From an uncultured Chloroflexia bacterium (GTDB lineage Bacteria > Chloroflexota > Limnocylindria > QHBO01): a DNA stretch of 64,000 bases. The notes below the pieces were generated by a model. That model was not told the origin of the DNA and searched no databases. It was given only the letters and a program-made list of their open reading frames with translations. A program made the position numbers and the translations under genes. Positions 8,232 to 64,000 of this stretch are shown here, piece after piece. Where the stretch lies: contig CAVQTN010000002.1 in assembly GCA_963716585.1 (NCBI GenBank), forward strand, positions 389,730-453,729, given 5' to 3'. The number at the start of each line of letters is the position of its first letter. Position 1 is the stretch's first letter.

Positions 8232-9785
8232 GTGAGGGAGATTGAGCTCTTCCTGGAGCTGCTGGTGGTCGTCGCACTGATCGCCACGGTCGCTCGCCGG
8301 CTGGGCGTCCCGTACGCGATCCCGATGGTCGTGGGCGGCCTGCTGCTCGGGTTCATTCCCGGGCTGCCGCGCATCGTGCTGACACCGGACCTGGTTCTGC
8401 TCATCTTCCTGCCGCCGATCCTGTTCTCGGCGGCGTACACCACCTCATTTCGCGACCTGCAGGCGAACATCAAGCAGATCGGCCAGCTTGCCTTCGTGCT
8501 CGTCCTGATCACGATGGCTGGCGTGGCGGTCGTTGCGCACTGGCTGGTACCCGAGATCGGCTGGCCCGCAGCCTTTGCCCTGGGCGCGATCGTCTCACCG
8601 CCCGACGCCATCTCGGCGACGGCGATCGCCCAGCGGGTCGGGCTGCCGCGGCGCGCGGTGATCATCCTGGAAGGCGAGAGCCTGGTGAATGACGCCACGG
8701 CGCTGACCGCCTATCGCGTCGCCGTCGCCGCAGCCGTCGGCACCTCGTTCGGGCTCGGCGATGCCGCGCTGAAGCTGCTCGTCACGCTCGTCGGCGGCAT
8801 CGTCATCGGACTGGTCGCCGGCTGGGTGATCACCCGCGTGGTCAACCGCCTCAATGACGCTCCGGTCGAGACCACTGTCAGCCTCATCGCACCGTTCGCG
8901 GCCTATCTGCCCGCCGAGCAGCTCGGCGTCTCCGGCGTGCTCGCCTGCGTGATTGCGGGGCTCATGCTCGGGCGCGCCGCGCCCACCATTCTCAGCTCGC
9001 AGTCGCGCGTGCTGGCGACATCGGTCTGGCAGATGGTCATCTTCCTGATCAATGCGTTTGTCTTCGTGCTCATCGGCCTGCAGCTGCCGGCCATCGCCGA
9101 TTCCAGCGCCCACTCGCTGTCGCAGTTCCTGATCGTTGGTGCCGCTGCCGCCGCGACGGTTGTCGCCGTTCGGATGGCCTGGATCTTCATCAGCTCCTAC
9201 GGCGCAGCGTGGCTGGCACGAAGGCACAACGGCCAAAGCTATCCGGGGTGGGAAGGCCTGCTGGTCCTCTCGTGGGCGGGCATGCGGGGCTCCGTCTCGC
9301 TGGCCGCGGCCCTGGCGCTGCCCGCCGTGCCGCCCTTCCCGGGTCGGGAGCTCATCATCTTCGCCGCCTTCTCGGTCATCCTGGTGACGCTCGTGGGACA
9401 GGGTCTCACGCTGCCGCTGCTGGTCCGCCGGCTCGGCCTATCCGGCGACGCCGAGCGTGGTGGCGAGGAGACGCATGCACGCCAGTTCGCCACCGAAGCG
9501 GCGTTGAGCCGGCTCATCGGCCTGCGCGAGGAGTGGCCGGACCACATCCCACTGGTCGACCAGCTGAGGCAGCGCTACGAGCACCGAACGGAGCATGAGC
9601 ATGCCGATCCGAACGACGAGGAAGCCGACCAGGAACTGATCGAGCACCGGCAGATCCGCCACGAGGTGATCGAGGCCGAGCGTCTTGCCGTCATCCACCT
9701 GCGGGATATCGGCGAGATCAATGACGACGTGCTGCGCCGCCTGGAGCGCGAGCTGGACCTCGAAGAGCTGCGGATGGAGGCATAG
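8232..9785 (+). CDS. CPA1-family Na+/H+ (cation/proton) antiporter
   Basis: Multi-TM protein with an NhaP/YjcE-like fold (LLIFLPPILFSAAY, IVSPPDAISATAIAQRVGLPRR, AIILEGESLVNDATALT). The track start at 8160 would overlap treY. The GTG at 8232 was chosen, so the start is uncertain. Confidence 0.75.
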   Translation: MREIELFLELLVVVALIATVARRLGVPYAIPMVVGGLLLGFIPGLPRIVLTPDLVLLIFLPPILFSAAYTTSFRDLQANIKQIGQLAFVLVLITMAGVAVVAHWLVPEIGWPAAFALGAIVSPPDAISATAIAQRVGLPRRAVIILEGESLVNDATALTAYRVAVAAAVGTSFGLGDAALKLLVTLVGGIVIGLVAGWVITRVVNRLNDAPVETTVSLIAPFAAYLPAEQLGVSGVLACVIAGLMLGRAAPTILSSQSRVLATSVWQMVIFLINAFVFVLIGLQLPAIADSSAHSLSQFLIVGAAAAATVVAVRMAWIFISSYGAAWLARRHNGQSYPGWEGLLVLSWAGMRGSVSLAAALALPAVPPFPGRELIIFAAFSVILVTLVGQGLTLPLLVRRLGLSGDAERGGEETHARQFATEAALSRLIGLREEWPDHIPLVDQLRQRYEHRTEHEHADPNDEEADQELIEHRQIRHEVIEAERLAVIHLRDIGEINDDVLRRLERELDLEELRMEA

Positions 9786-9808
9786 GCGCGCTTGGCCGGC
9801 GCCCAGTC

Positions 9809-9876
9809 GCGGTGAGTCGCCTGGCTCGCGGTGAGTCGCGGTGAGTCGCGGTGAGTCGCCTGGCTCGCCGTGAGTC
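9809..9876. repeat. tandem array of GGTGAGTCGC 10-mers interspersed with CTGGCTCGC(C) units
   Basis: Read directly. The array is ggtgagtcgc ctggctcgc ggtgagtcgc ggtgagtcgc ggtgagtcgc ctggctcgcc gtgagtcgc. The units are partly self-complementary (gagtcgcc / ggcgactc). It sits immediately 5' of repeat copy 1. Confidence 0.8.
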
Positions 9877-9885
9877 GCCAGGCGA

Positions 9886-10012
9886 TGAAACGAGTGACAG
9901 CCGCAGGCTCACGTGCGATCCATGCGCCAGGCGACTCAGATCAGCGCGATCGGGGGTTACTCGCCTGCAAACCGGTCGGTTTCAGTCAGCTGGCGCATCA
10001 AGTGCACGACAG
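9886..10012 (+). repeat. 127-nt structured direct repeat, copy 1, in the convergent intergenic region between the antiporter and the lipoprotein gene
   Basis: Ungapped alignment to 10874-11000 gives 108 of 127 identical bases. It contains the conserved hairpin aaaccg-gt-cggttt and conserved blocks gaaacgagtgaca, ctcagatcagcgcgat and cacgacagc. Confidence 0.8.
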
Positions 10013-10074
10013 CTCGCCCATTCCGGTCGGTTGATGCGCTGCACGACTCAAAGCGGGCCGCCCGCGACCGCTCC

Positions 10075-10734
10075 CTAGCTCGGCGCCAGCTGCGCGATGT
10101 CGATGACCAGCCGGTTGGGCTCCTCGAGCGTGGTGACGCGCATGCAGGCGCCGGGACCACGAACGCCGACGTACCACGTGCTTACCGCCTCGAAGTCGCC
10201 GCCCTGCTGGACGCTGACAACCTCGGCGAGCCCCGTCGGGGCGAGCGACGTTGGTCCGTCGTAGGAGATCGACCCGTCCGGCAGTTGTTTGGTCGTTCCT
10301 GGCAGCCGGACACGGAAGAAGCTCTCGCCGGGAATCGACAGCTCTCGGCCCGACCCGTCCTGGTAGAACGGTGGCACCCCCCGTTCGATGTCGTACGCGC
10401 CAGCTCCATCGGTCTCGAAGACGATCCTGTCGAACCGGTCATGTCCGCCGATCCGCACGTCGACGAGGCTGATGGGACCTGCGGCGTCCGAGCCCGCCAC
10501 CCGGAACTGCAGCGCGGCGGTGCAGTCGAAGCCGGTCAGGTCGTTCGGGCCGTCCTTGTCGGGTGGCATGGAGGGGACCGACATCGTCGGGTCGCTCGCG
10601 GGCGTCGCCGAGCCGGCGGTCGCTGGCAGCGTGGGGGCTGCGCTGGGGCTGGCGGTCGTGGCCGCGAGCGCGCTGCAGCCGGTAAGGATGAGGTTGACAC
10701 CAAGCAGCCAGGTCAGGGCGAAACGAACGGGCAT
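10075..10734 (-). CDS. secreted lipoprotein of unknown function
   Basis: 219 aa. The signal peptide and lipobox are MPVRFALTWLLGVNLILTGC. The mature sequence is non-repetitive and varied in composition (FDCTAALQFRVAGSDAAGPISLVDVRIGGHDRFDRIVFETDG...). The overlapping plus-strand ORF 9913-10740 is Arg/Gly junk. Confidence 0.65.
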   Translation of the reverse strand: MPVRFALTWLLGVNLILTGCSALAATTASPSAAPTLPATAGSATPASDPTMSVPSMPPDKDGPNDLTGFDCTAALQFRVAGSDAAGPISLVDVRIGGHDRFDRIVFETDGAGAYDIERGVPPFYQDGSGRELSIPGESFFRVRLPGTTKQLPDGSISYDGPTSLAPTGLAEVVSVQQGGDFEAVSTWYVGVRGPGACMRVTTLEEPNRLVIDIAQLAPS

Positions 10735-10873
10735 TGGTAGCGAACTCCGTTGGATGGTGATGCCCTGCGTAGACGCCCTCGCGTTGGTTCTTGTTCCAGA
10801 CCGATGCGTGACGCCCGCGGAGCCTGACTCGTGCCGGAGCCAAACCCGCGGCCGCTGAGTCGCTCGGCGACTG

Positions 10874-11000
10874 AAACGAGTGACACCCGCAGGCTCACCT
10901 GCCGCTCATGCGCCACAGGACTCAGATCAGCGCGATTGAGCGTTACTCGGCTGCAAACCGGTCGGTTTCAGTCGCCTGGCGCGTGAAACGCACGACAGCG
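10874..11000 (+). repeat. 127-nt structured direct repeat, copy 2, in the divergent promoter region between the lipoprotein gene and trpE
   Basis: Same element as 9886-10012 at 85% identity with no gaps. Here the 5' gaaacgagtg can additionally pair with cactcgtttg at 11011-11020. Confidence 0.8.
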
Positions 11001-11381
11001 CGCGCGTCCCACTCGTTTGACTCCCCGCCCAGCTCAAGCTGCGGCGGCGCCAGTTGACGTCACCGGAGCATCGGCCCATGATGCGCGCTCAATCGAACAC
11101 GACAGGCGTTGACCGGGACGATTAGTCGGTTGGCGGGCCCCACGAGCGAGCCGGGAGGGTGGAAGCCGGCGTGGCCCGATCCGATGAACTGGACCCGCGA
11201 GCCTCGCTCCGAACCCGGCGCCAACCACGCTGGCAGTAGGCGGCGACGAACTGACCGGACGTTAGCAGCGGTCGAACCGAGCGCGAGCCCGCAGCAACGG
11301 ACTCGAACCAGGGTGGCACCGCGGAAGAACGCCTCCGTCCCTTTGTATGGATGGAGGCGTTGCGGTACCTGCAAGGATGAA

Positions 11382-12775
11382 ATGACGCTCGCGGACACGA
11401 CACCCGGCATTGCGACCCTGGAGCTGGCGGCCGATACGCTGACGCCGGTCGCTGCCGCACTGCGCCTGGGTGATCGCTGCGCCTTCCTGCTGGAGAGCGT
11501 CGAGGGCGGCGTGCGCTACGGCCGCCACTCGATCGTGGGCGTCCGCGGCAGGACCCTGGTGGTGCGAGGCGAAACGGCCACGATCGACGGCCGGGACTTC
11601 GCCGCCGACGACCCGCTCGAGGCGTTGCGCGCCGTCCTGCCGCGGCAGGCCGCCGGTCGCGGCGACCTGCCGTTTCCGCTGGCATCCGGCGTGGGCTACC
11701 TGGGGTACGAGGCCGCGGCACGCTGGGAGCGCGTCCCGACGCCGTCCGCCGATCCGCTGGGCATGCCGGACGCCGTGCTGCACATTCCGGAGGCGGTGAT
11801 CATCTTCGACCACCTCGCACAGGTGATGCGCCTGGCTGCACTGGAAACGCCGCACGTGGCCATACGGCTCCAGGACCTCGCCGAGACACTGGGCCGGCCG
11901 AGCCCCGACGAGGCGCCGCGGCCAATGCCGCCATTGGCCGGCGAGGCGCCGCCGGACGATGCGGCGGCACGGGAGCGCTACGAACGCAACGTTGGGCAGC
12001 TGGTCGAGGAGATCCATGCCGGCGAGATGCTTCAGGCGGTCCTGGCTCGACGCTTCAGCATTCCGACGCAGCGCGGTGCCTTCGACATCTACCGCTCGCT
12101 GCGCCGCATCAACCCGTCGCCCTACCTCTTCTACCTCGACCTGTCGGACGTGGCGCCCCGTACGGCGCTGATCGGGGCCTCACCCGAGCTCCTCGTCCGG
12201 GTGCGCGACGGCGAAGTGGTGACCCGACCAATCGCCGGCACCCGGCCGCGCGCCGAGGATCCGAGCGAGGACGCCCGCCTGGAACGTGAGCTGCAGCACG
12301 ACCCGAAGGAGCTCGCCGAGCACGCCATGCTGGTCGACCTTGCCCGCAACGACGTCGGCCGCGTGTCGGTGGCGGCTTCGGTCGAAGTGCCGACGCTGCG
12401 CGCCGTCGAGCGCTACTCGCACGTCATGCACCTCGTCTCCGAGGTGCGCGGTCGGCTCCGGCCGGAGCTGGACGCCTTCGACGCGCTCCGGGCCGCCTTT
12501 CCCGCCGGCACGGTCAGCGGCGCGCCCAAGGTGCGCGCCATGCAGGCCATCGCCGACCTCGAGGGCGAGAAGCGCGGCCCGTACGGCGGCGCCATCGGCT
12601 TCTTCTCGTCGACCGACATCGAGGCGGCGATCACCATCCGCAGCGTCCTGCTGCGAGACGGCATGGCCCACGTGCAGGCCGGCGCCGGCATCGTCGCCGA
12701 CTCGGCGCCGCGCCGCGAGAGCGCCGAGGTGGCGGCCAAGGCCCAGGCAACCCTCGTGGCGGTCGGAGGAGGGGC

Positions 12776-12779
<4 letters not shown>
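11382..12779 (+). CDS. trpE: anthranilate synthase component I
   Basis: TrpE/chorismate-binding motifs are present (LLESVEGGVRYGRHSIVGV, GYLGYEAAARWE, FPAGTVSGAPKVRAMQAIADLEGEKRGPYGGAIGF). The start was set at ATG 11382 (MTLADTTPG). The 5' extension of the track ORF from 11109 lies over the repeat and was rejected. Confidence 0.85.
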
Positions 12780-13555: not shown

Positions 13556-14427
13556 TCCGCGATCCAGGTCCCGCGCCGTTGGCGTCGCGTTTCTTCCGCC
13601 CGTCGCCTTCCGTCGTCTCGGTTGGGCCGACCTCGTTCGGCGGCGGCGGACCGGTACTGGCCGCAGGCCCATGCGCCGTCGAGTCGCGGGAGCAGCTGCT
13701 GGCGGTTGCCTCGGCCGCTGCCTCGGTCGGGGCCGGGCTGCTGCGGGGCGGCGCCTTCAAGCCCCGCACCTCGCCATACGCGTTCCAGGGGCTGGGACCG
13801 GAGGGCCTCCGCCTACTGGCCGAGGCGCGCGCCGAGACGGGGCTGCCGGTCGCCACCGAGGTCCTGGCGCCGGAGCAGGTCGAGCTGGTGGCCGAGTACG
13901 CCGACATGCTGCAGGTCGGCGCGCGAAACATGCAGAACTTCTCGTTGCTCGCCGCCGTTGGAGCGGCCCGCAAGCCGGTGCTGCTGAAGCGCGGTCTTGG
14001 CGCAACGCTCGACGAGTGGCTGCTGGCGGCGGAGTACCTGATCGCCACCGGCGCCTCAGGCGTCGTGCTGTGCGAGCGCGGCCTGCGTCATTTCGACCCG
14101 CACACGCGCAACATCCTGGATCTCGCTGGTGCGGTGGCCGTGGGCTCCATGACGCACCTGCCGGTCATCGCCGATCCGTCGCACGCGACCGGCCGCCGCG
14201 ACCTCGTGATTCCGATGGCGCTGGCAGCGCTGGCTGCCGGCCTGAAAGGGGTCATCATCGAGGTCCACCCCGATCCGGACCGCGCGCTCTCCGACGGCCC
14301 CCAATCTCTCGACCTGGACGGTCTGCGCGAGTTGGCGGCGCGCATCGCCGGGTTGGGAATCAGGCTCGCCCAGCCCTCAAGACAGCCGCGCGCGACCACC
14401 GTCGAGGGCTGGGCCGGCTGGCGTTGA
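13553..14427 (+). CDS. 3-deoxy-7-phosphoheptulonate (DAHP) synthase, class I-beta, paralog 1
   Basis: DAHPS/KDO8PS-like motifs are present ([59 protein letters not shown]). The start is uncertain, a possible TTG near 13553. It overlaps the RES toxin gene convergently by about 50 nt. Confidence 0.75.
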
Positions 14428-20787: not shown

Positions 20788-22099
20788 TCACGGGTGCACC
20801 TCCGATGCGTGGCGCCGCTGCACGGAGCGCGAAGCGCGCAGGATCGAGCCGAAGACCGCCGACATCTCCTCGACCGTCATCACGCCGTCGCCGGCGGCCG
20901 CGCGGACCAGCAGCTCGTGCTCGCGCCGCACGTCGTGGCCGTGCGTGCCATTGCCACGGGCCTGCTGGACGGCGAGCGCCGCCGCGGCCCGTTCCTGCAG
21001 CAGCGCCGCGATCCGGTGGTCCAGCGAATCGATCGTCTCGCGCAGCGCCACGACGTCGCCGGATGGCGGCGCCGGGGATGGCATCGGTCGCTCGGGAATG
21101 CGCACGAACTGCAGTCGTCGCAGCTCGTCCATGAGCTCGCCGAACTCCTCGAACGAGAGCGACTGGTCGCCATCGGATTTGGCCTGGGTGGGATGGGGAT
21201 GCACCTCGATGAGCAGGCCATCCGCTCCGACGGCAGCGCCGGCGAGCGCCATCGGTCCGACCAGGGCTCGCTGGCCGGTGCCGTGCGAGGGGTCGACCAT
21301 GATCGGCAGGTGGGTGCGCTGGCGCAGCACCGGCACGGCCGACAGGTCGAGCGTGTTGCGTGTGGCCGTCTCGAACGTGCGGATGCCACGTTCGCAAAGG
21401 ATCACGTTTGGGTTGCCGGAGGACAGGACGTACTCGGCCGCCAGCAGCCACTCCTCGATGGTCGCGCCGAAGCCGCGCTTGAGCAGCACCGGCAGCCGGC
21501 TGTGGCCCACGGCGCGCAGCAGCACGAAGTTGTGCATGTTGCGGCTGCCGACCTGCAGCACATCGACGTAGCGGGCGAAGATCTCGACCTGCGCCGGATC
21601 GGTCACCTCGCTGATGACCGGCAGGCCGGTCTCGTCGCGGGCGTGCGCCAACAGCTCCAGGGCGGCGGAGCCCGAGACCCTGGAAGGCGTACGGCGAGGT
21701 GCGCGGCTTGAAGGCGCCGCCACGCAGCAGGGTCGCGCCCTCGCGACGCGCCGCGCGGGCCGTGCTCAGCAGCTGGTCGGCGGATTCCACCGCGCACGGG
21801 CCGGCGACCACCTGCAGCTCGCCTCCGCCACCGACGTCGACGTCACGCACCCGAACCCGGGTGCGCTCCGGATGATGCTCGATGCTTGCCAGCTTGTACG
21901 GCTGGGTGACCCGGATGACCTGCTCGACGCCGGGGAAGGTTCCCAGGTGCGCCGCACGCTCCACCTCGGCGCCGACCACGCCGATCACCGTCCGCTCCTC
22001 GCCGACGCTGACGAAGGCCTGCAGGTCGTGCGCCTCGATGGCCTCCCGGACTGCCTTCACATCGTCCCGCGTCGCCGTCGGACGCATCACCACGATCAT
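20788..22099 (-). CDS. tri-domain DAHP synthase (N-terminal ACT-like regulatory domain, class I-beta DAHPS core, C-terminal AroQ-type chorismate mutase), paralog 2; 1-nt frame break near 21661
   Basis: The N-terminal part is in ORF 20606-22099 ([43 protein letters not shown]...[12 protein letters not shown]...[15 protein letters not shown]). The continuation is in ORF 20788-21723 ([45 protein letters not shown]...[12 protein letters not shown], then the CM domain [33 protein letters not shown]...). The break is an extra C in gccgccctggag. Confidence 0.75.
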
Positions 22100-36641: not shown

Positions 36642-37613
<972 letters not shown>

Positions 37614-39322: not shown

Positions 39323-40405
39323 TCAGGCCCAGGGCAGGCTGATGGGCAGCAGCGCGTTGAGCAGCAGGCCCAGGATCAGCAGCGCGCCCGCACGCCGCGT
39401 GTGGATGAAGGCCGCGCCGACGAACCACAGCGGCCAGCCGACGTAGCCCTCCGGCGGCTGCACCGGCCGCGGTGCGTTGAAGACGCGCAGGACCAGCAGC
39501 AGCAGTGGGACGCCGAGCAGGGTGACGATCACAAACGGCCCGATCCAGCCGACCAGCGCGGGCACGATCACGATCGGGTAGTAGGCGATCATCAGGACCT
39601 GGGCGACCCGCCGCGCTGTTGCCTGGCCGAGCATCACCGGCAGGGTGTGTACGCCCTTCGGCCGGTCGGCCTCGATCTTGTCGATGTGCTTGCCGAACAG
39701 CACGGTGGTCACCAGGATGGCGTACGGCAGCGACGCGATCCACACCCATCCGGGCAGCGCGCCGGTCGCGACGTAGAAGGTGCCGCCGACCATCAGCGGG
39801 CCCCACACCAGGAAGACGCCCGGCTCGCCCAGACCGTGGTACTTGAGCCGGATGGGCGGCGCGACATAGAAGACCGATACGAACAGGCCCGCCAGCGCGA
39901 ACGCGATGACCAGTGGCCCTCGCTCGTACGCCAGGAACAGCATGATCGCCAGGTCGACCGCATTGGCCAGCAGGATGGCGACGGCCAGCTGCCGCCGGGT
40001 GACCCAGCCCGAGAGCACGGGATGAGGCGCATACAGCGCCCGGTAGTAGTCGTCGGTGTCTACCCCACCCTCCAGGTCGAAATAGTCGTTGATCATGTTG
40101 TTGGCGGCGTGCGCCACCACCAGGCCGATGACGGCCAGCAGCGCCAGCCAGTAGCTGATTTGCACCTCACCCTGGCGGGCCGCGCCGACGGCCAGCAGCG
40201 CGCCGATGAGCCCGGACGTGGCGGTCATCGAGAAGACGGCCGCGCGGGTGATGACCAGCCACTTGCTGACCGCGTCGGGGTGGGTCATGCCCGCCGGCAG
40301 GTTGGCGGTGCGCAGCACGTAGCCCCAGCTGCGCAGGCGGGCACCCAACGGTGCGCTGGGCGTCACCGGGGTTGGCTTCGGAATCACGGGCCTGGTTGTC
40401 GACAT
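39323..40405 (-). CDS. UbiA-family aromatic prenyltransferase (MenA-like)
   Basis: Polytopic. The first Asp-rich motif is NNMINDYFDLEGGVDTDD and the second is FGKHIDKIEADRPKG. The start was chosen at MSTTRPVIPK, and the upstream 26 codons are uncertain. Confidence 0.65.
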   Translation of the reverse strand: MSTTRPVIPKPTPVTPSAPLGARLRSWGYVLRTANLPAGMTHPDAVSKWLVITRAAVFSMTATSGLIGALLAVGAARQGEVQISYWLALLAVIGLVVAHAANNMINDYFDLEGGVDTDDYYRALYAPHPVLSGWVTRRQLAVAILLANAVDLAIMLFLAYERGPLVIAFALAGLFVSVFYVAPPIRLKYHGLGEPGVFLVWGPLMVGGTFYVATGALPGWVWIASLPYAILVTTVLFGKHIDKIEADRPKGVHTLPVMLGQATARRVAQVLMIAYYPIVIVPALVGWIGPFVIVTLLGVPLLLLVLRVFNAPRPVQPPEGYVGWPLWFVGAAFIHTRRAGALLILGLLLNALLPISLPWA

Positions 40406-40793
40406 GTACGGCCGCGAGTCTACTCCGGGGCCGTCCGCGGGTCGCGCACCACGCCAGCGGCGACCAAGTCCGAGGGGACTCACCTGCGTGAGAGCACTTG
40501 GCTCGCGTGCGATCGACGCGCGCAGTGACTCAATTCGACCGGATTGACCCCTGAACTCGCGCGCGACGCGTCGTTGTGAGGTACTGCTCGCCTCAAATGC
40601 ATGACAGCGGCCGGATCTCGGTCGAGTGAATCAGGCCAGACTCAAAGCGGCGCCCAACCGATGGCGAGCGCCGTTGAAGTGCAGGAGGGCCTGGAGAAAC
40701 GATCGCGCCGCCGCGCATTCGCTGCCGCGGTCCTGGACGATCGGGCGAGCGGGGACACTTCCCCACTCGCCCAGCGGAGCCTCGCGGCTCCCG

Positions 40794-41054
40794 TCAGCTG
40801 GACGAGGAGCCGCTGCCGCTCGACGCCTTGTCGCTGCGGTCGCAGACGTGGCCCGTCGCGCCGTTGTCCGAGCCGATCCCCGTCCCGGCGCTGGCGCTGG
40901 GACTCGCGCTGGGCGTGGCTGACGGCGACGCGGCGAAGACGCTGGCCGCGCCGCCGAGCAGGATCGTGGCTCCCAGCACGGCGGCCGCGATCAAGGCGCG
41001 GGGTCGTGAACGGGCCGGCGGGCCGGCATCGGCCTGGATGGTTGGTTCCATTGC
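40794..41054 (-). CDS. small secreted Ser/Pro/Thr-rich protein (about 86 aa)
   Basis: Sequence: MEPTIQADAGPPARSRPRALIAAAVLGATILLGGAASVFAASPSATPSASPSASAGTGIGSDNGATGHVCDRSDKASSGSGSSSS. It has a signal peptide (or signal-anchor) and a low-complexity tail. It lies 87 nt downstream of the GT39 gene on the same strand. Only the 3' part of track ORF 40794-41864 was accepted. Confidence 0.4.
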   Translation of the reverse strand, partial: AMEPTIQADAGPPARSRPRALIAAAVLGATILLGGAASVFAASPSATPSASPSASAGTGIGSDNGATGHVCDRSDKASSGSGSSSS

Positions 41055-41140
41055 GTAACCTCCTGTCTGTGACGGCCGCCTGGTGGGGGCCGATGCGGTC
41101 CAGGGTGTCCTGCAGCTCTTGGAGTCGCATGAGAGTCGGC

Positions 41141-43162
41141 TCATGCGGCCAGGTCGTAGACGGTCACCCTGCCGATCGTCGTCGCGCTGAAGCGATCCGC
41201 GACCCACTGGCTGATCTGGGAGGCGACGTCCGATCCACCCCGCGCCCCGCGGAAGCCGCCGGCGTCGACTCCGGCGACGTAGTAGTGGATCGCGCCCGCG
41301 GCGACGTATGCCTGGAACTCGGCCAGCGTCGGCGAGGGGTCGGTGCCGTTGAAGCCGCCGATGGCCATCACCGACCGGCCGCTGCCGAGGGCCAGGCCAG
41401 CGGCGTTGTTGGCGCCGGTCGTGGCCGCTGCCCAGCGGTAGTTCGACGCATCCTGCTGCAGGGCCGCGACGAGTGCGGCACTCGGCGTCGCCGAGTCGAG
41501 CAGACCGCCGAGCGACGCGCCTCGATTGGCCGTGCCGTTGGACCCGCCGCCGAACGCTGGGAATGGCCGACTGTTGCCCGGGCGCTGGAACAGCTGGCCA
41601 CGCGGCCCGCGGAACGCGTTGCCGGGAGCGCCGGGGCCAAAGCGGCCGAAGCCGTCGACATTCTCGACCTGCGGCTCGGTGGTGGGGATGGCACCGCTGT
41701 GCGCCTCGGCGGCGGTGGCGATGGCGCCGAGGGAAGGGGCGGCCATCACGACCGCGACCGAGACAGCGAGCACCAGCTGCTGGATCCTCCGTCCGGCGCT
41801 CCGGCTGAACAGCAGCCCCATGGCGGCCACTCCGCCGCCGAAGAGCAGCACGGGCGCCAGCCACGGAAACCAGTCAGGGCTGCGGGCCAGCAGCGTCACC
41901 GCCCAGATGACGGTGAGGGCGACGCCAGCGGCGAGGCTGGCGCGAGCCACGGGATGACGTCGCCGAGCCCAGGCGGCGGCCACGCCCATGCCCACCAACG
42001 CACCGATGGCGGGCACCAGCACGACCGTGTAGTAGGGGTGGAAGATGCCCTTCATCAGGCTGAAGACGAGCCCGGTGAGCACCAGCCAGCCGCCCCACAG
42101 CAGCGCCTGGGCGCGCACCGCGTCGGTTCGCCGGCGACGGCGCGTCAGCCACAGCAGCGCCACGAACGAGACCAGCGCCGCCGGCAGCAGCCAGCTGACG
42201 TTGCTGCCCAGCTCACCACCGAACAGGCGCAGCCAGCCCGCGCCGTCGCTGAACGGGCCGCCGCCGAACCCGCCGAACGTAGGTGCTCCCCCGCCGACTC
42301 GACCGACCTCGTCGCCGGTCAGCCGCCCGAGGCCGTTGTAGCCGAGCATCAGGTCGATGATGTTGTTCGTCTGCGTCCCGCCGATGAACGGACGCGTGCT
42401 CGCGGGCAGCAGCATCACCACGGCGACCCACCAGCCGGCCGAAACCAGGACGGCCAGCGCGGCCGCTCCGACCTGGCGCACCCGCCGCCACCAGCTCGTG
42501 GGTGCGGCGAGCAGGTAGACGCCGCTCAGCACCGGGATGATCACGAATCCCTGCAGCATCTTGGTCAGGAACGCGAAGCCGACGGCCACGCCGGCGAGCA
42601 CCAGCCAGCGCGTCGAGGCCGTTTCGAGGGCCCGCAGCGTGCCGTACGCCGACGCAACCAGCAGCAGCGTCAGCAGCGCGTCCGGGTTGTTGAATCGGAA
42701 CATGAGCGCAGCGACGGGGGTCAGCGCCAATGCGGCGCCGGCGATCAGCCCGCCCAACGCTCCGCCACGGCGACGAACGCTCAGGTACAGCAGCCAGACC
42801 GCTGCGACGCCCTCGAGGGCCTGCGGGGCCAGGATGCTCCACGAGCTGAAGCCGAAGATGCGGGCGCTGAGTGACATGACCCACACGGCCGCCGGCGTCT
42901 TGTCGACGGTGATCGCGTTTCCGGCGTCGAAGGAGCCGAACAGCATGGCTGCCCAGTCCTTCGAGCCCGCCAGCGCCGCCGCCGAGTAGTACGCGTTGGC
43001 CCAGCCCGATGCGGACAGGTTCCACACGAAGAGCGCTGCGCTTCCCAGCAGGAGAAGCACGAGGGCGGGAAGCTCCCACCCAAGGGAGCGTCCCGCGACG
43101 CGTGTGTTGGCCGGTTGTGCGATTCGAACGCCGGCGTCACCGGCCAGGACGTCGGAGCTCAT
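41141..43162 (-). CDS. glycosyltransferase family 39 (PMT/ArnT-like) polytopic membrane protein
   Basis: 673 aa. The N-terminal signature typical of bacterial GT39 proteins is present (WNLSASGWANAYYSAAALAGSKDWAAMLFGSFDAGNAITVDKTPAAVWVM). The protein has many TM helices and a Gly-rich periplasmic region. Confidence 0.75.
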   Translation of the reverse strand: MSSDVLAGDAGVRIAQPANTRVAGRSLGWELPALVLLLLGSAALFVWNLSASGWANAYYSAAALAGSKDWAAMLFGSFDAGNAITVDKTPAAVWVMSLSARIFGFSSWSILAPQALEGVAAVWLLYLSVRRRGGALGGLIAGAALALTPVAALMFRFNNPDALLTLLLVASAYGTLRALETASTRWLVLAGVAVGFAFLTKMLQGFVIIPVLSGVYLLAAPTSWWRRVRQVGAAALAVLVSAGWWVAVVMLLPASTRPFIGGTQTNNIIDLMLGYNGLGRLTGDEVGRVGGGAPTFGGFGGGPFSDGAGWLRLFGGELGSNVSWLLPAALVSFVALLWLTRRRRRTDAVRAQALLWGGWLVLTGLVFSLMKGIFHPYYTVVLVPAIGALVGMGVAAAWARRRHPVARASLAAGVALTVIWAVTLLARSPDWFPWLAPVLLFGGGVAAMGLLFSRSAGRRIQQLVLAVSVAVVMAAPSLGAIATAAEAHSGAIPTTEPQVENVDGFGRFGPGAPGNAFRGPRGQLFQRPGNSRPFPAFGGGSNGTANRGASLGGLLDSATPSAALVAALQQDASNYRWAAATTGANNAAGLALGSGRSVMAIGGFNGTDPSPTLAEFQAYVAAGAIHYYVAGVDAGGFRGARGGSDVASQISQWVADRFSATTIGRVTVYDLAA

Positions 43163-58830: not shown

Positions 58831-61800
58831 GTGATTTCCTCTTGCGCGGGGACCCGGGTTGCGCGGCCGGCACTCTCATTGGCGTCCGCTCCAGGGCGGC
58901 CGCCAGCTCCGGGGGGCGGATGGGCTTGCTCAGGTAATCGTTCATCCCAGCGGCCAGGCACGCCTCGCGGTCGCCGGCCATGGCGTTGGCGGTCATGGCC
59001 ACGATCCACAGCGGCCGACTCCGGCCAGCGGGAGCGGATCGCGCGCGTGGCACCGAGTCCGTCGAGCTCGGGCATCTGGACGTCCATGAGCACCACGTCG
59101 AACGGCGTCGCGCTCGAGTGCCGCGATCGCCTGCAGCCCATCGGCTGCCACCTGCGCGGTGTAACCGAGCTGCGCCAGCAATCGCAGGGCGAGCTTCTGG
59201 TTCACGGCGTTGTCCTCGGCCAACAGGATGCGCAATGGATTGCGCTCGCCAAGCAGGCCGTCATCGTTCGTCGCGACCTTGCCCGGCGCGGGACGCCGCG
59301 TCACGACCGGCGCCGAGCAGGATCGTGGCAATGGTGTCGTGCAGCGCCGACGGCTTGACCGGCTTCGCCAGCCAGTCCGTCACCGGACCGCCATCCCGGT
59401 CCCGCATGCCGACCGACGACAGGATCACCAGCGGTGTCTGCTGACGATGCGCCGTCTCATCGACGGCGCGGACGCGTTCCGCGAGCTCGACTCCGTCCAG
59501 CTCTGGCATCAGCAGGTCGAAGAGGGCGATGTCGAAGCGCTCGCCGTGCTCGAGCCATTCGAGCGCCTCGAGCGGCGAGCCCGTCTCGCGCGGCACCATC
59601 CCCCAGCGCGCGGTCTGCGCCACGAGGATGCGGCGATTCGTGGCGTTGTCATCGACGATCAGCGCCGTTCGTCCGCTCGAGGTCAGCCTCGATCCGCGCC
59701 GGTCGACTGGGTGCCACCGCATCTGGCGCGGCGAGCGGCATGCGGACCGAAAGATGGAAGACGCTCCCCTCTCCGGGGACGCCCTGGCTCTCGACAGTCA
59801 GCGAGCCATCCATCAGCTCCGCGAGCCGGCGGCTGATGGCGAGGCCGAGGCCGGTGCCGCCGTATCGGCGCGCAATCGACGCATCGGCCTGGCTGAAGGA
59901 CTGGAAGAGCCGATCCATGGCAGCCGCCGGGATACCAATGCCCGTGTCGCGAATGTCGATGCGGACCTCGCAGCGACCCAGGCTGCCGCGCTTCGGACGC
60001 TTCGATCTGGGTTCCGCCGACCGTCACGACGACCTCGCCCTGCTCGGTGAACTTGACGGCGTTCGAGAGCAGGTTGAGGAGCATCTGGCGCAACCGGCCC
60101 GCGTCGCCGACCAGGGCGGCGGGAAGCTCCTCGTCGACGGCGTAGACCAGCTCGAGGCCCTTCTTGGCAGCAGCCGGCGCGATGATGTCGAGCGAGACCT
60201 CGATGGCGTCGCGCAGGTTGAACGGGGCGTTCTCGAGATCGACGCGCCCCGCCTCGATCTTCGAGAAGTCGAGCACGTCGTTGATGATCGTCAGCAGCGC
60301 GTCACCCGACGTGCGGATCGTCTCGGCGAAGTCGCGCTGCTCCTCGTCGAGCGGTGTGTCCATCAGCAGCCCCGACATGCCGATGATGGCATTCAGCGGC
60401 GTCCGGATCTCGTGGCTCATGGCCGCCAGGAAGCTGCTCTTGGCCTCGTTGGCCTGCTCGGCGGCGTCTACGCGACTCCTGGGCCTCGCCGAAGAGGCGC
60501 GCATTCTCGAGCGCGATGGCCGCCTGCTGCGAGAGCCCGACCAGGAAGCTCAGGTCGGCGTTGCTGAACGGCGTCGGCGAGTCGGTCCGCCACATCGCCA
60601 GCATGCCGGCGACGGCTCCGCGGACCACGAGTGGCGCCGCCATGAGGCGTTCGGCGCCGTGCTGCTGCGTGCCCTCGATGGTCATCGCCCGAGGATCCGC
60701 ATTGGGGTCGTTGATGGCCTCTGCCGTACCGGTAACGGCAATATCACCCAGGATGCCGGCGCCACGGGTGATCAGGGAGGCGCGCAGCTGCTCGGCGATG
60801 TCTCCCTGTGCCGACGACCGCCCGGAACCTCTCGCCGTCCTGTTCCGGCAGATAGATCGCGGCGGCATCGGCGCGCAGCAGCCGAATGGCGCGCGAGGCG
60901 ATGACGTCGAGCACCGTCGACAGGTCGAGCGTCGCGGAGATCTCGCGCCCGACGTCGGCGAGCCCCGCCATCTCGTCGGCGCGGCGCCGGGTCTCGTCGT
61001 ACAACCGTGCGTTCTGGACCGCGACGCCGACGTTCGCGGCAATCGTCGCGAGCAGCCGCGCATCGGCGTCGCCGAAGCGGCTGTCGCTGGTGGTGCTCTG
61101 CACGCTGATGGCGCCGATGGCCCGGTCGCCTACCAGGATCGGCACGCCCAGGTACGACCGCGCGCGCGTTCCGACGCCTCGCTCCCCAGCGTCTCCCAGT
61201 CCGATTCGCTGTTGAGCAGCAGCGGCGCGCGGCCCGCGATCACGCGGGACGTCAGTCCGGTGCCCAGCGGCAGCGGATCCTGGCGCTCGTGGGTTCCACG
61301 CTCGACGTAGAACGGAAAGTCGATGACTCCGTGACTCCTCGTCGAGGAGCGCCACGTAGGTGATGTCGGCGTCGAAGGCATCGCGCGTCTTCTCGCCGAC
61401 GAGCGCCAGCAGCGGCTCGACCTCCATGCGCGCGGTCAGCGCCTCGCCCACGGTGTTGATCGTTCCAAGCTCGCCGACACGCTGGCGTGTCTCGTCGATG
61501 AGCCGACCCGTTCGCAGTGCCACGCTGAGGCTGGCCGCAATCGTGGTCAGCAGGGAGACATCGGCCTCGTTGAAGGCATATTCGCGGTCGAGGTTCTGGA
61601 GCGAGATGACGCCTAGGATCTCGTCGCCCAGGACGAGCGGGGCGAAGATCGCCGAGCGGGCCGGCTCACCGCTGAGCTGTGAAGGCTGGCCCAGCTCTGC
61701 CCCGACCTCGCGAAGGTCGTGGGTGATGAGCAACGGTTCCCGCGTCTCGATCACCCGCTTGCGGAAGCCCATCACCGGCCGCGACTCGACCGGATAGCGC

Positions 61801-64000
61801 TTGCCACGCTCCAGCGTGAACGGGAATTCCATCGTCTGGGTCGTCGCGTCGTAGACGGCGATGTCGACCACCTGCGTGTCGAAGACGTCGCTCGCGCGCT
61901 CGCCGACCAGCTCGTACATCGCCTGCACATCGACCTCGGCGGCGAGCCGGCGCTGCACGCTGTTGACGATCGCCAGCTCGGCGGCGCGCCGGTCGGTCTC
62001 CGCCAGCAGCCGCTTCGTCTCGTCGAAGAGACGAGCGTTCTCGAGCGCGACGCTGAGGCTCGACGTGAGCGTCGTCAGCAGTCGCACATCCGAGTCCGAG
62101 AAGGCGTCCTCGCGATCGATGTTCTGCAGCGAGATGACGCCTCGAGCCTCGTCCCCGACGATCGAGTGGAACCCACAGGCCCGACTGCGGCGCTTCACCT
62201 TGAACCACGCAGTGCCCAGGCGTGCTCCTGAAAGACACTCTGGATGTCGCGACCGATGAGCAGCGGCTGGCGCGTCTCCATCACGTGGGCTCGCAACCCG
62301 CCGATGGGCTGCGGCTCGTCAGGCAGACGCTCACCGCGCTCGATGGTATACGGATAGCGGATGAGCCCGGCTTGACGGTCGACGATGCCGATGTCGACGA
62401 CCTGCGCGTCGAAGATCTCCTGGATCTTGTCGCCGACGAGGTCGTACATCGCCTGCATGTCGAGCTGCGACGCAAGCCCCTGCTGGACGCTGTTGACGAC
62501 CGCCAACTCGGCCGCCCGCTCGATCGGTCTCGGTCAGAAGGCGCTTCGTCTCGTCGAAGAGCCGCGCGTTCTCGAGCGCCACGCTCAGGCTGGCGGCCAG
62601 CGTCGACAGGAGGCGCACGTCCGCTTCGGAGAATGCGTTCGTCCGATCCAGGTTCTGGAGCGAGATGCGGCCCCGAACCTCGCCGGCGGCGAACAACGGC
62701 GCCGCCACCAGGCTGAGTGCCGGCTCGCCCTGGATCGGTTGCAGGTCCTGTCCGGTTTCCACGTTCCAGGCGGGGACGTCGGCGATGTAGATCGGCTCCG
62801 CGCGCTCGATCAATTGCGCCGAATAGCCATGGACCGGCACCGGTTCATCGGGATAGCGTACGCCGCGCTCGATGGCGTACGGGAAGTGAATCAGGTTCGA
62901 CGCGGTGTCGATGATGCCGATGTCGACGACCTGCGCGTCGAAGATCTCCTGGATCTTGTCGCCGACGAGCTCGTACATCGACTGCATGTCGAGGTTCTGC
63001 GGCCAGCCCCTGCTGGACGCTGTTGACGACCGCCAGCTCGGCGGCGCGCTCGTCGGTCTCGGCCAGCAGGCGCTTCGTCTCGTCGAAGAGGCGGGCGTTC
63101 TCGAGCGCCACGCTGAGGCTGGAGCCAGCGTGGTGAGGAGGCGCACATCGGAATCCGAGAAGGCGTGCTCGCGGTCGAGGTTCTGGAGCGAGATCCGCCC
63201 GCGGATCTTCCCGTCGCCGAAGAGCGGCGCCATCACGAGGCTCCTGGACGGTTCACCCTGGGTGATGACCGTGCCGCCGGCGTGTTCGCTTGTCCCAAGC
63301 GTCGTAGTCGGGGATCAGCACCACCGAGCCGGTGCGGATCAGCTCGGAGGAGAGCCCGGAGCCCTCCAGCGTGGTCGGCTCGGTCGCGGAAAGCGCACCC
63401 CGCGCTCGATGGCGTAGGGGTAGCGCACCAGCCCGGCGTCGAAATCGAAGATGCCGATGTCGACGACCTGCGCGTCAAAAATCTCGCGGATCTTGTCGCC
63501 CACCAGTTCGTACATCGCCTGCATGTCGAGGTTCTGGGCCAGCCCCTGCTGGACGCTGTTGACCACCACCAGCTCGGCCGCGCGCTCGTCAGCCTCGCCC
63601 AGCAGCCGCTTCGTCTCGTCGAACAGCCGAGCGTTCTCGAGCGCCACGCCCATGCTCGATGCGACCGTGCTGAGGAGCCGCTCGTCGCTTTCGGAATAGG
63701 CATTCGGCTTCAGGTTTTCGAGGCCGATGATGCCGATCACCCGCTCGCCGGCGAGGATCGGCACGCCGAGCCATGACTCCGACGCCGGTCCCGCCACCAC
63801 GATCGCGTCGCTGGCTGCCGTATCGTCCAGCCTGCCGAGGCGCAGCGGCGCGCGCGATGCGATGACCTTGGAGGTGAGGCCCTGCCCCAGCTGAATCGGC
63901 TCGCTGTGCAGCCGATCCCCCTCGGCGATCTCATACGGGAACCGGATGACGTTGGTCGCCTCGTCGTAGAGGGCGACAAACAGCGAGGTCGCGTCGAAGA
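58817..64000 (-). CDS. hybrid sensor histidine kinase with at least 7 tandem GAF domains, HisKA, HATPase_c, and two receiver domains; N-terminus beyond the window end; reading frame interrupted at several points
   Basis: The pieces in the track are as follows. GAF modules of about 175 aa recur with a period of about 525 nt between 60300 and 64000 ([43 protein letters not shown]...[22 protein letters not shown]). HisKA and HATPase_c lie at 59649-60504 ([19 protein letters not shown] ... [17 protein letters not shown], then after a frame change [23 protein letters not shown]). REC1 is at 59261-59722 and REC2 is split over three frames (58817-59331). Confidence 0.6.

Follow-up and report, generated by a model that had tools for sequence, protein, structure and literature searches.

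The ERIC/IRU sequences of Enterobacteria are intergenic imperfect palindromes of about 127 bp or more, which are variably present at orthologous sites; they typically lie in transcribed regions and may come to lie in a 3' UTR, where they form a long hairpin. Descriptions of small palindromic repeats are scarce for Limnocylindria and other uncultured Chloroflexota, and a full-text literature search gave no paper mentioning both Limnocylindria and "repetitive". REP units are 20-40 bp long and carry a GTAG or CGTC tag at one end (PMC3733652), REP/REPIN sequences are mobilised by RAYT transposases (PMC3116915, PMC3337134), and the hairpins of REPINs show frequent compensatory changes (PMC3116915). 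BrickBuilt, a MITE of Porphyromonas gingivalis, carries an internal minisatellite (PMC4596501). The window analysed here, by which we mean the whole stretch of 64 kb, holds three copies of a palindromic repeat, all intergenic and two of them 1 kb apart. The repeat is probably a lineage-specific, non-coding and non-autonomous foldback element of about 200 bp, of the MITE/REPIN/ERIC kind, and the copies are most likely selfish DNA of an ordinary kind rather than regulatory RNA or parts of a gene cassette. The copies, and the gene which two of them bracket, are the following:

9867 to 10062, plus strand: copy 1 of the palindromic repeat (nhmmer 171.7 bits; covariance model 199.6 bits)
10075 to 10734, minus strand: AMIN-like (PF24837) lipoprotein gene, bracketed by copies 1 and 2 and lying outside the element (Pfam E 4.9e-29)
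10852 to 11048, plus strand: copy 2 of the palindromic repeat (nhmmer 164.5 bits; covariance model 193.4 bits)
40460 to 40662, plus strand: copy 3, diverged and largely decayed (nhmmer E 4.6e-7)
Putative ends of the element: TGAGTCGC...GCGACTCA

A direct repeat pair around the lipoprotein gene, 85% identical over 127 nt without gaps, had been reported in the preliminary description, and such a pair exists far above chance: the 18-mer GACTCAGATCAGCGCGAT and the 23-mer CTGCAAACCGGTCGGTTTCAGTC occur exactly twice each, with shuffle expectations of 0.17 and 0.00, respectively. The coordinates 10874-11000 given there for copy 2 are, however, 2 nt off. The segment in register with 9886-10012 is 10872-10998 (offset 986; 85.0% identity ungapped), whereas the offset of 988 gives an identity of only 27%. 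The full homology is longer than 127 nt and extends over about 196 nt (9867-10062 versus 10852-11048) with 78% identity and a single indel of 1 nt close to the 5' end. Both copies contain the three blocks described as shared, and also the hairpin aaaccg-gt-cggttt. The segment cactcgtttg is restricted to copy 2, as had been claimed, in the form of the perfect 10-mer, but copy 1 retains this helix (helix 2) with a bulge. A TR/VR pair of a diversity-generating retroelement (DGR) was considered for these two repeats and rejected, as an A in either copy is found at only 5 of the 32 mismatched positions, where mismatches confined to the adenines of one copy would be expected, and the window has no reverse transcriptase.

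A search of the window and of contigs from relatives for further copies gave two. Copy 3 was detected with a profile for which only copies 1 and 2 had been used. It lies about 30 kb from these, can be aligned with the element over its whole length, is 53-55% identical to them and is situated in an intergenic region upstream of the gene for a UbiA prenyltransferase (start 40405, minus strand). The fourth copy is found in a related metagenome contig, L003, at the site of copy 2, and is roughly 55% identical to copy 2. Copies 1 and 2 are mutually 78-85% identical, compared to 45-57% with any other copy. A covariance model run over 183 kb recovered these four copies and no others, and in about 98 kb of DNA from relatives (L002, L003 and L019-L029) the copy in L003 is the single one according to both nhmmer and the covariance model. 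Neither search found a family member at a distant locus (L004), and BLASTN in distant mode gave no match of copy 2 to plasmid and phage collections. The pattern GGCTCNCNTGCNNNNNANGCGCNNNNNGACTCA, which matches all three copies of the window, was also found at one locus in genome contigs and at nine in metagenome contigs; all ten were judged to be chance matches, since the match was confined to the pattern region and the GC content was lower. A weak match at 37107-37185 (nhmmer E 0.014), inside a coding gene, was not accepted as a family member.

The element is a long imperfect palindrome. The profile matches the reverse strand of copy 1, copy 2 and the L003 copy with E values from 3e-13 to 6e-18 (in reverse-strand self-matches, 5e-16 for copy 1 and 6e-18 for copy 2), and the self-complementarity exceeds that of dinucleotide shuffles with z values of 4.0, 7.1 and 7.0, respectively, while the palindrome of copy 3 is no longer significant (z = 0.4). 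Changes on both sides of a pair, which the preliminary description had suggested looking for with a covariance model, are seen in 19 of the 49 pairs of the consensus hairpin. Pairing is kept in 84-96% of these 49 pairs at a sequence identity of 45-57%, and 88.8% of the cells are paired compared to 75.5% in shuffles (0/500) and 26-38% with the partners slid; all these values refer to a structure that had been obtained from the four sequences themselves and was then evaluated on them. The consensus folds at -30.1 kcal/mol on the plus strand and -31.9 kcal/mol on the minus strand, and in a strand-neutral palindrome alignment, where the arms are only about 60-66% complementary, the mismatches are balanced (18 G·T versus 21 A·C). 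Since the strands fold equally well and the two kinds of mismatch are balanced, the palindrome belongs to the family and not to one strand, and points to the DNA level rather than the RNA level. The thermodynamic z-scores are modest (-1.1 to -3.7). The outer arms TGAGTCG...CGACTCA form helix 1, with exact termini which are blurred among the four diverged copies.

Comparison with relatives shows that the element appears and disappears in the gene spacers of one uncultured Chloroflexota lineage. Site 1, where copy 1 of the window is bordered by the stop codons of two convergent genes, one for a Na+/H+ antiporter (ends at 9785, plus strand) and one for the lipoprotein (ends at 10075, minus strand), is empty in L003, in which 14 nt separate the two stop codons. 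Site 2, located where the lipoprotein and trpE promoters diverge, is empty in L002 and filled in L003, and site 3 is empty in four relatives (L026-L029). The type of spacer is different for each copy: convergent, divergent and tandem. In L002 site 1 is occupied by a 204-nt segment which is palindromic (z = 3.2), though without detectable homology to the element. The TrpE proteins of relatives without the element at the orthologous site are 82% identical. No consistent target-site duplication was seen between filled and empty sites in the window, L002 and L003, where the flanks are about 25-40% diverged; the boundaries cannot be aligned base by base because the filled and empty sites come from genomes which are too diverged.

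The spacer around copy 2 contains two further features:

10770 to 10797, minus strand: promoter-like GGAAC-N17-CGTCTA of the lipoprotein gene (read from the sequence)
11054 to 11082, plus strand: trpE/T-box promoter TTGACG-17-CATGAT (promoter scan)

The GGAAC-N17-CGTCTA motif, which we take to be an ECF-sigma-type promoter, lies between the lipoprotein gene and copy 2 and is also found in L002 and L003. The trpE/T-box promoter begins 6 nt past the end of copy 2 and is conserved in L002, L003 and L024, with the homology ending directly upstream of AGTTGACG. With a conserved promoter on either side, each pointing away from it, copy 2 is probably not transcribed. Upstream of trpE there is also a sub-threshold Rfam match to the T-box. 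A consensus terminator scan detected no intrinsic terminators inside the elements; just past the stop codon of the lipoprotein gene, on the minus strand, a GC-rich stem is followed by TTTGAG.

The element was described earlier as having no evident coding potential, and our analysis agrees with this. Substitutions are spread evenly over the codon positions in every frame, most frames contain stops, and over 160 nt the amino acid identity (60-66%) is lower than that of the nucleotides (80%), which speaks against small coding ORFs. The 44 proteins of the window that were scanned belong to aromatic amino-acid biosynthesis, transporter, respiration and signalling functions, and no transposase, integrase or reverse transcriptase was found among them.

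In several respects the element resembles MITEs. It is about 200 bp long, well within their size of less than about 600 bp without coding capacity, intergenic and narrow in host range; it shows inverted-repeat symmetry and occurs in several copies at unlinked intergenic sites (three in the 64-kb window), and its insertion is polymorphic at sites 1, 2 and 3. It differs in being a loose palindrome as a whole, whereas a MITE has a unique core and short, sharp terminal inverted repeats. Furthermore, no insertion sequence with the same ends turned up as a possible parent, no target-site duplication was defined, and the copies documented are three in the window plus one. The likeness to REPINs lies in the extragenic hairpin of an inverted doublet, in the compensatory changes (19/49 pairs, with both strands equivalent), in the symmetry of a DNA feature with respect to the strands and in the persistence within a lineage. 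REPINs are, however, about 100 bp long, compared to about 180-200 nt for the hairpin of the element. A GTAG or CGTC tag is not consistently present at the end of the palindrome in the four aligned copies, and the 64-kb window contains no gene for a RAYT (Y1 transposase). With ERIC the element shares the intergenic imperfect palindrome and the variable presence at orthologous sites, but it has no sequence similarity to ERIC, belongs to Chloroflexota, is larger, and has one copy (copy 2) between promoters. Among the candidate explanations put forward in the preliminary description, that of a REP/MITE-like dispersed element is the one in line with these data, given copy 3 and the L003 copy, the imperfect palindrome and the presence or absence at all three sites.

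Maintenance of pairing (84-96% of the 49 pairs) in copies which are only 45-57% identical could also mean that the element is a functional hairpin and not mobile, that is a stem-loop of about 180 nt acting at the RNA or DNA level, in which selection keeps the pairing while the sequence drifts; it might serve, for instance, as a bidirectional terminator or a stabiliser of mRNA 3' ends where genes converge, or as a palindrome bound by a protein. The position of copy 1 exactly between two convergent stop codons, the palindromic nature of the unrelated segment at site 1 of L002, and the stem with TTTGAG after the lipoprotein gene are consistent with such a role. We nevertheless regard it as possible but unlikely, as a terminator or UTR function makes no sense for copy 2, upstream of both flanking promoters, the palindrome has been lost in copy 3, the terminator scan was empty, 14 nt suffice between the same convergent genes in L003, and the structure was tested on the sequences from which it came. 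The earlier suggestion of an RNA motif would make the element a structured RNA of one strand, encoded by a small RNA gene or forming a cis-regulatory leader or trailer of several operons; it may be brought in line with the covarying plus-strand hairpin predicted by RNAalifold, with the folding of copy 1 plus its tandem array, which is better than in all 200 shuffles (z = -3.7), and with the fact that the plus orientation gives the best nhmmer score for all three copies of the window. The minus strand folds equally well, however, there is no excess of G·U (18 G·T against 21 A·C), and no Rfam 15 family matches the element at the gathering threshold in the whole window. Even at E values up to 10 only microRNA noise was obtained at the element over 9700-11450, and at E values up to 1 there were no matches over 40380-41200, the region of copy 3. 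The element is moreover not conserved at orthologous sites in relatives with 82% identical TrpE, its gene context varies from copy to copy, and copy 2 is outside both predicted transcription units, so that a role as conserved regulatory or small RNA motif appears improbable.

Copies 1 and 2, 986 bp apart, are far closer to each other than to the other copies, which would also be expected if copy 1 were a one-off segmental duplication or gene conversion of copy 2 with no mobility involved, copy 3 and the L003 copy being chance matches or ancient relics. The lack of further copies in the pattern scans of public contigs is compatible with this. Against such a local history, copy 3 was detected at E 4.6e-7 and over its full length by a profile from which it was excluded, its spacer is unrelated, 30 kb distant and empty in four relatives, and a simple tandem duplication cannot give the present layout since the gene between copies 1 and 2 is not duplicated; we consider this explanation doubtful. 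Two imperfect palindromes in direct orientation around a single short gene (660 bp) are also reminiscent of integron attC sites, and recombination sites delimiting a mobile lipoprotein cassette were among the earlier proposals. This we reject as highly improbable. In L002, L003 and a JGI contig the gene order trpE-lipoprotein-antiporter is maintained whether or not the repeats are there. The lipoprotein gene, for which a comparison between strains had been proposed, is retained both in L003 without copy 1 and in L002 without copy 2. The gene has its own conserved promoter motif, the RYYYAAC / GTTRRRY (R-box) core is absent from copies 1 and 2 and their flanks, the elements of about 200 nt are above the size range of attC, no integrase was found among the 44 proteins scanned, and copy 3 stands alone.

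For the non-autonomous foldback element that we favour, the copies would arise by transposition or copy-and-paste through an enzyme presumably encoded elsewhere in the genome. Copy 1 may have derived recently from copy 2, or from a master common to both, and landed 1 kb away, and copy 3 may represent an old, decaying insertion. Effects on neighbouring genes would be secondary, with copy 1 possibly serving as a hairpin between convergent genes, and copy 2 possibly separating the two divergent promoters by about 240 bp. It is tempting to go further and speculate, with a rather small chance of being right, that the element is a REPIN-like replicator of Chloroflexota, whose hairpin of about 180 nt is recognised as folded single-stranded DNA by a putative lineage-specific transposase, Y1/RAYT-like or of another kind, with TGAGTCGC marking the site of binding or cleavage. 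Compensatory change would then preserve the pairing, and the TGAGTCGC motif would have been amplified in tandem at copy 1. Recognition of the family explains the apparent "cassette" layout around the lipoprotein gene and warns annotators against calling small RNAs or ORFs at the element. The element may account for contig breaks or rearrangements beside trpE in related MAGs and is a possible marker for strain typing; a new biological question would arise only if the family proved to have a mobilising enzyme dedicated to it or to play a part in regulation.

Copy 1 differs from copy 2 at its 5' end, where it is overlapped by an array:

9805 to 9883, plus strand: tandem array of the 5'-terminal motif of the element (TRF, periods 10 and 19)

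TRF and exact 10-mer matches both support the tandem 10-mer array noted earlier in front of copy 1. It is composed of five (G/C)GTGAGTCGC units with two CTGGCTCGC units interleaved; GGTGAGTCGC has four exact matches, together with one CGTGAGTCGC variant, and copy 2 carries one variant unit, GCTGAGTCGC. The array may have originated by replication slippage of the terminal TGAGTCGC motif. Its structure fits the designation "VNTR-like", but the length variation implied by this term was not seen, the array being identical in length in L001, a near-identical contig (99.86%) from another sample. An intergenic MITE-like element with a short-period tandem repeat, in which the number of units varies between copies, is similar to what is found for BrickBuilt. 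The 23-nt array of BrickBuilt, however, constitutes the body of all copies, whereas the 10/19-nt array of the present element is expanded only in copy 1, at the 5' terminus. The 13-mer TGAGTCGCCTGGC of the array is perfectly complementary to 9926-9938 within copy 1. A CRISPR array, in which identical repeats of 23-50 nt alternate regularly with unique spacers, was considered and rejected, as TRF and the repeat search gave nothing beyond the head-to-tail array of 10/19 nt and a pair of 19-nt units. These two GTCGCC..TGAAAC units lie 113 nt apart and presumably resemble the ends of type I-C CRISPR repeats.

The existence of a repeat pair flanking the AMIN-like lipoprotein gene was confirmed. The 85% ungapped identity over 127 nt given in the preliminary description stands (85.0% between 9886-10012 and 10872-10998), whereas its copy 2 was misplaced by 2 nt, since 10874-11000 (offset 988) is just 27% identical to copy 1. 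The homology is also longer than 127 nt, with 78% identity and one 1-nt indel over the bounds obtained from nhmmer and the covariance model. Both GACTCAGATCAGCGCGAT and CTGCAAACCGGTCGGTTTCAGTC have two exact occurrences in the window, where shuffles expect 0.17 and 0.00, respectively. The element and its surroundings comprise the following features.

Features of the repeat family and its neighbourhood
Ends at 9785, plus strand: Na+/H+ exchanger gene, upstream
9805-9883: tandem array, period 10 and 19
9867-10062: copy 1 (nhmmer and covariance model)
9872-9890, 10857-10877 and 10970-10989: 19-nt sub-unit GTCGCC-NGG-CG(A/C)NTGAAAC
10075-10734, minus strand: AMIN-like lipoprotein gene (PF24837)
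10770-10797, minus strand: GGAAC-N17-CGTCTA motif, upstream of the lipoprotein gene
10852-11048: copy 2 (nhmmer and covariance model)
11054-11082, plus strand: trpE promoter (TTGACG at 11054, 17-nt spacer, CATGAT)
11100-11345, plus strand: T-box leader before trpE (RF00230; 65 bits, E 2e-13, below the gathering cut-off of 93 bits)
11382-12779: trpE, downstream
40460-40662: copy 3 (profile of copies 1 and 2)

The element is not confined to the lipoprotein locus, as it would be in a simple local duplication. A profile built from copies 1 and 2 only detected copy 3 (E 4.6e-7) some 30 kb away, in the intergenic stretch preceding a UbiA prenyltransferase gene, and also matched a further copy in L003, a related metagenome contig. 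The four copies can be aligned across ~200 nt, with 78% identity between copies 1 and 2 and 45-57% for every other pair. Over 183 kb, the covariance model of the family recovered exactly these four and their reverse strands, with no other hit. In genome and metagenome collections, a pattern that fits each of the three window copies gave chance matches only, and plasmid and phage collections held no match to the element. A weaker nhmmer match, 37107-37185, falls within a gene and was dropped. Between copy 3 and the PMT_2 gene is a small unannotated ORF of ~85 aa (40794-41051, minus strand) whose N-terminal segment is hydrophobic and whose tail is rich in Ser, Pro and Ala; in two relatives, L028 and L029, its place is taken by an unrelated gene of 140 aa.

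The copies are palindromic. Reverse-strand matches to the family profile were obtained for copy 1 (E 5e-16), copy 2 (6e-18) and the L003 copy (3e-13), and their self-complementarity against dinucleotide shuffles is significant (z = 4.0, 7.1 and 7.0); for copy 3 it falls short of significance (z = 0.4), as is expected of a decayed relic. RNAalifold gives a single long bulged hairpin of 49 pairs, with both sides changed in 19 of them. Paired cells make up 88.8% of the hairpin against 75.5 ± 2.1% in column-preserving shuffles (0/500), the structure being derived from the same four sequences, and pairing is only 26-38% once partners are slid. Signs of coding constraint are absent from every frame, in line with the earlier reading of the repeat as non-coding.

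Two other explanations had been put forward for the copies. As recombination sites they would delimit a cassette holding the lipoprotein gene. The gene is, however, retained in the relatives L002 (lipoprotein 63% identical) and L003 (70%), within a conserved trpE-lipoprotein-antiporter order, while the repeat sites vary. The site of copy 1 is empty in L003, with 14 nt between two convergent stop codons, and in L002 (10649-10852) it holds a different 204-nt segment with no detectable homology to the element. The site of copy 2 spans ~10 nt in L002 versus ~240 nt in the window, and in L003 it contains a copy that is roughly 55% identical; that of copy 3 is empty in four relatives (UbiA 82-91% identical). 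By these comparisons the repeats are gained and lost around a stable gene, which therefore is not a cassette delivered with them; attC cores are also absent from the element, and this explanation is rejected. The 204-nt segment of L002 is itself significantly palindromic (z = 3.2); it could belong to a second family of foldback repeats or form a terminator hairpin.

A cis-regulatory or small RNA motif is unlikely. The pairing signal has no strand specificity: the reverse-complement alignment folds at -31.9 kcal/mol with 17/44 covarying pairs and the forward one at -30.1 kcal/mol with 19/49, and a strand-neutral palindrome alignment has 18 G·T mismatches alongside 21 of the A·C type. Folding z-scores of single sequences are modest (-1.1 to -3.7), and no Rfam family matches the element. 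Copy 1 lies in a convergent spacer, copy 2 between divergent promoters and copy 3 in a tandem-gene spacer, layouts that are hard to reconcile with a common cis-RNA role, and copy 2 is probably untranscribed because of its position. The promoter on one side of it, that of trpE, is conserved in L002, L003 and L024, and the T-box promoter and leader in L002, L003, L019, L021 and L025. On the other side, GGAAC-N17-CGTCTA precedes the lipoprotein gene in 3/3 genomes (the window; L002, ~9925-9955; L003, ~1425-1455) and fits ECF-sigma promoters; in distant homologues the gene lies directly 3' of an ECF sigma factor gene. The observation on this motif also covers L004-L008.

A REP/MITE-like dispersed element, the remaining proposal, is supported by copy 3, the L003 copy, the presence and absence at the sites and the palindrome. 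Its features match those of ERIC. They also match small non-autonomous intergenic repeats such as MITEs (PMC10969869, PMC11602168) and REPINs, for which hairpin-preserving compensatory changes are documented (PMC3116915), but differ from REP units, which are 20-40 bp long with a GTAG or CGTC tag (PMC3733652). None of the 44 window proteins is a transposase, no target-site duplication emerged at the sites compared, copy mismatches have no adenine bias, and no CRISPR-like regular array lies around the element. A REPIN-like replicator with a putative dedicated enzyme in Chloroflexota is possible.

The 10-mer tandem array described before copy 1 was recovered, with four exact GGTGAGTCGC units and one variant interspersed with two CTGGCTCGC units, and has equal length in a near-identical contig from another sample (99.86% identical). 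Its unit is the 5' terminus of the element itself, (G/C)GTGAGTCGC followed by CTGGC, and its 13-mer TGAGTCGCCTGGC is perfectly complementary to 9926-9938 within copy 1. Amplification of the terminal motif by slippage is the simplest reading; a MITE with an internal minisatellite, BrickBuilt, is on record (PMC4596501).

The 19-nt sub-unit consists of a mini-hairpin and a subsequent TGAAAC, and each element has two of them in direct orientation. Superficially it resembles type I-C CRISPR repeats at their 3' end; neither an array nor cas genes were seen with it.

Homology between genomes ends directly upstream of AGTTGACG, where copy 2 also ends, and the place of this copy is a hot spot of assembly breaks or rearrangement. 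In the closest relatives (L019, L021, L023 and L025), contigs terminate within the trpE T-box or shortly before it, and ahead of the trpE promoter L024 (1-345) carries an unrelated gene, the break falling right at AGTTGACG.

The window has ~70% GC and carries housekeeping genes for aromatic amino-acid biosynthesis, transporters, cytochrome oxidase and signalling. Homologues of its proteins bear source names that indicate Candidatus Limnocylindria (Chloroflexota). Tandem repeats of ~530 bp with ~66% identity at 60465-64000 are GAF domains arrayed in large signalling proteins encoded on the minus strand. An inverted 690-bp similarity (13628-14310 and 21157-21839, 69% identity) represents two DAHP synthase paralogues, one at each end of the gene cluster for aromatic amino acids.
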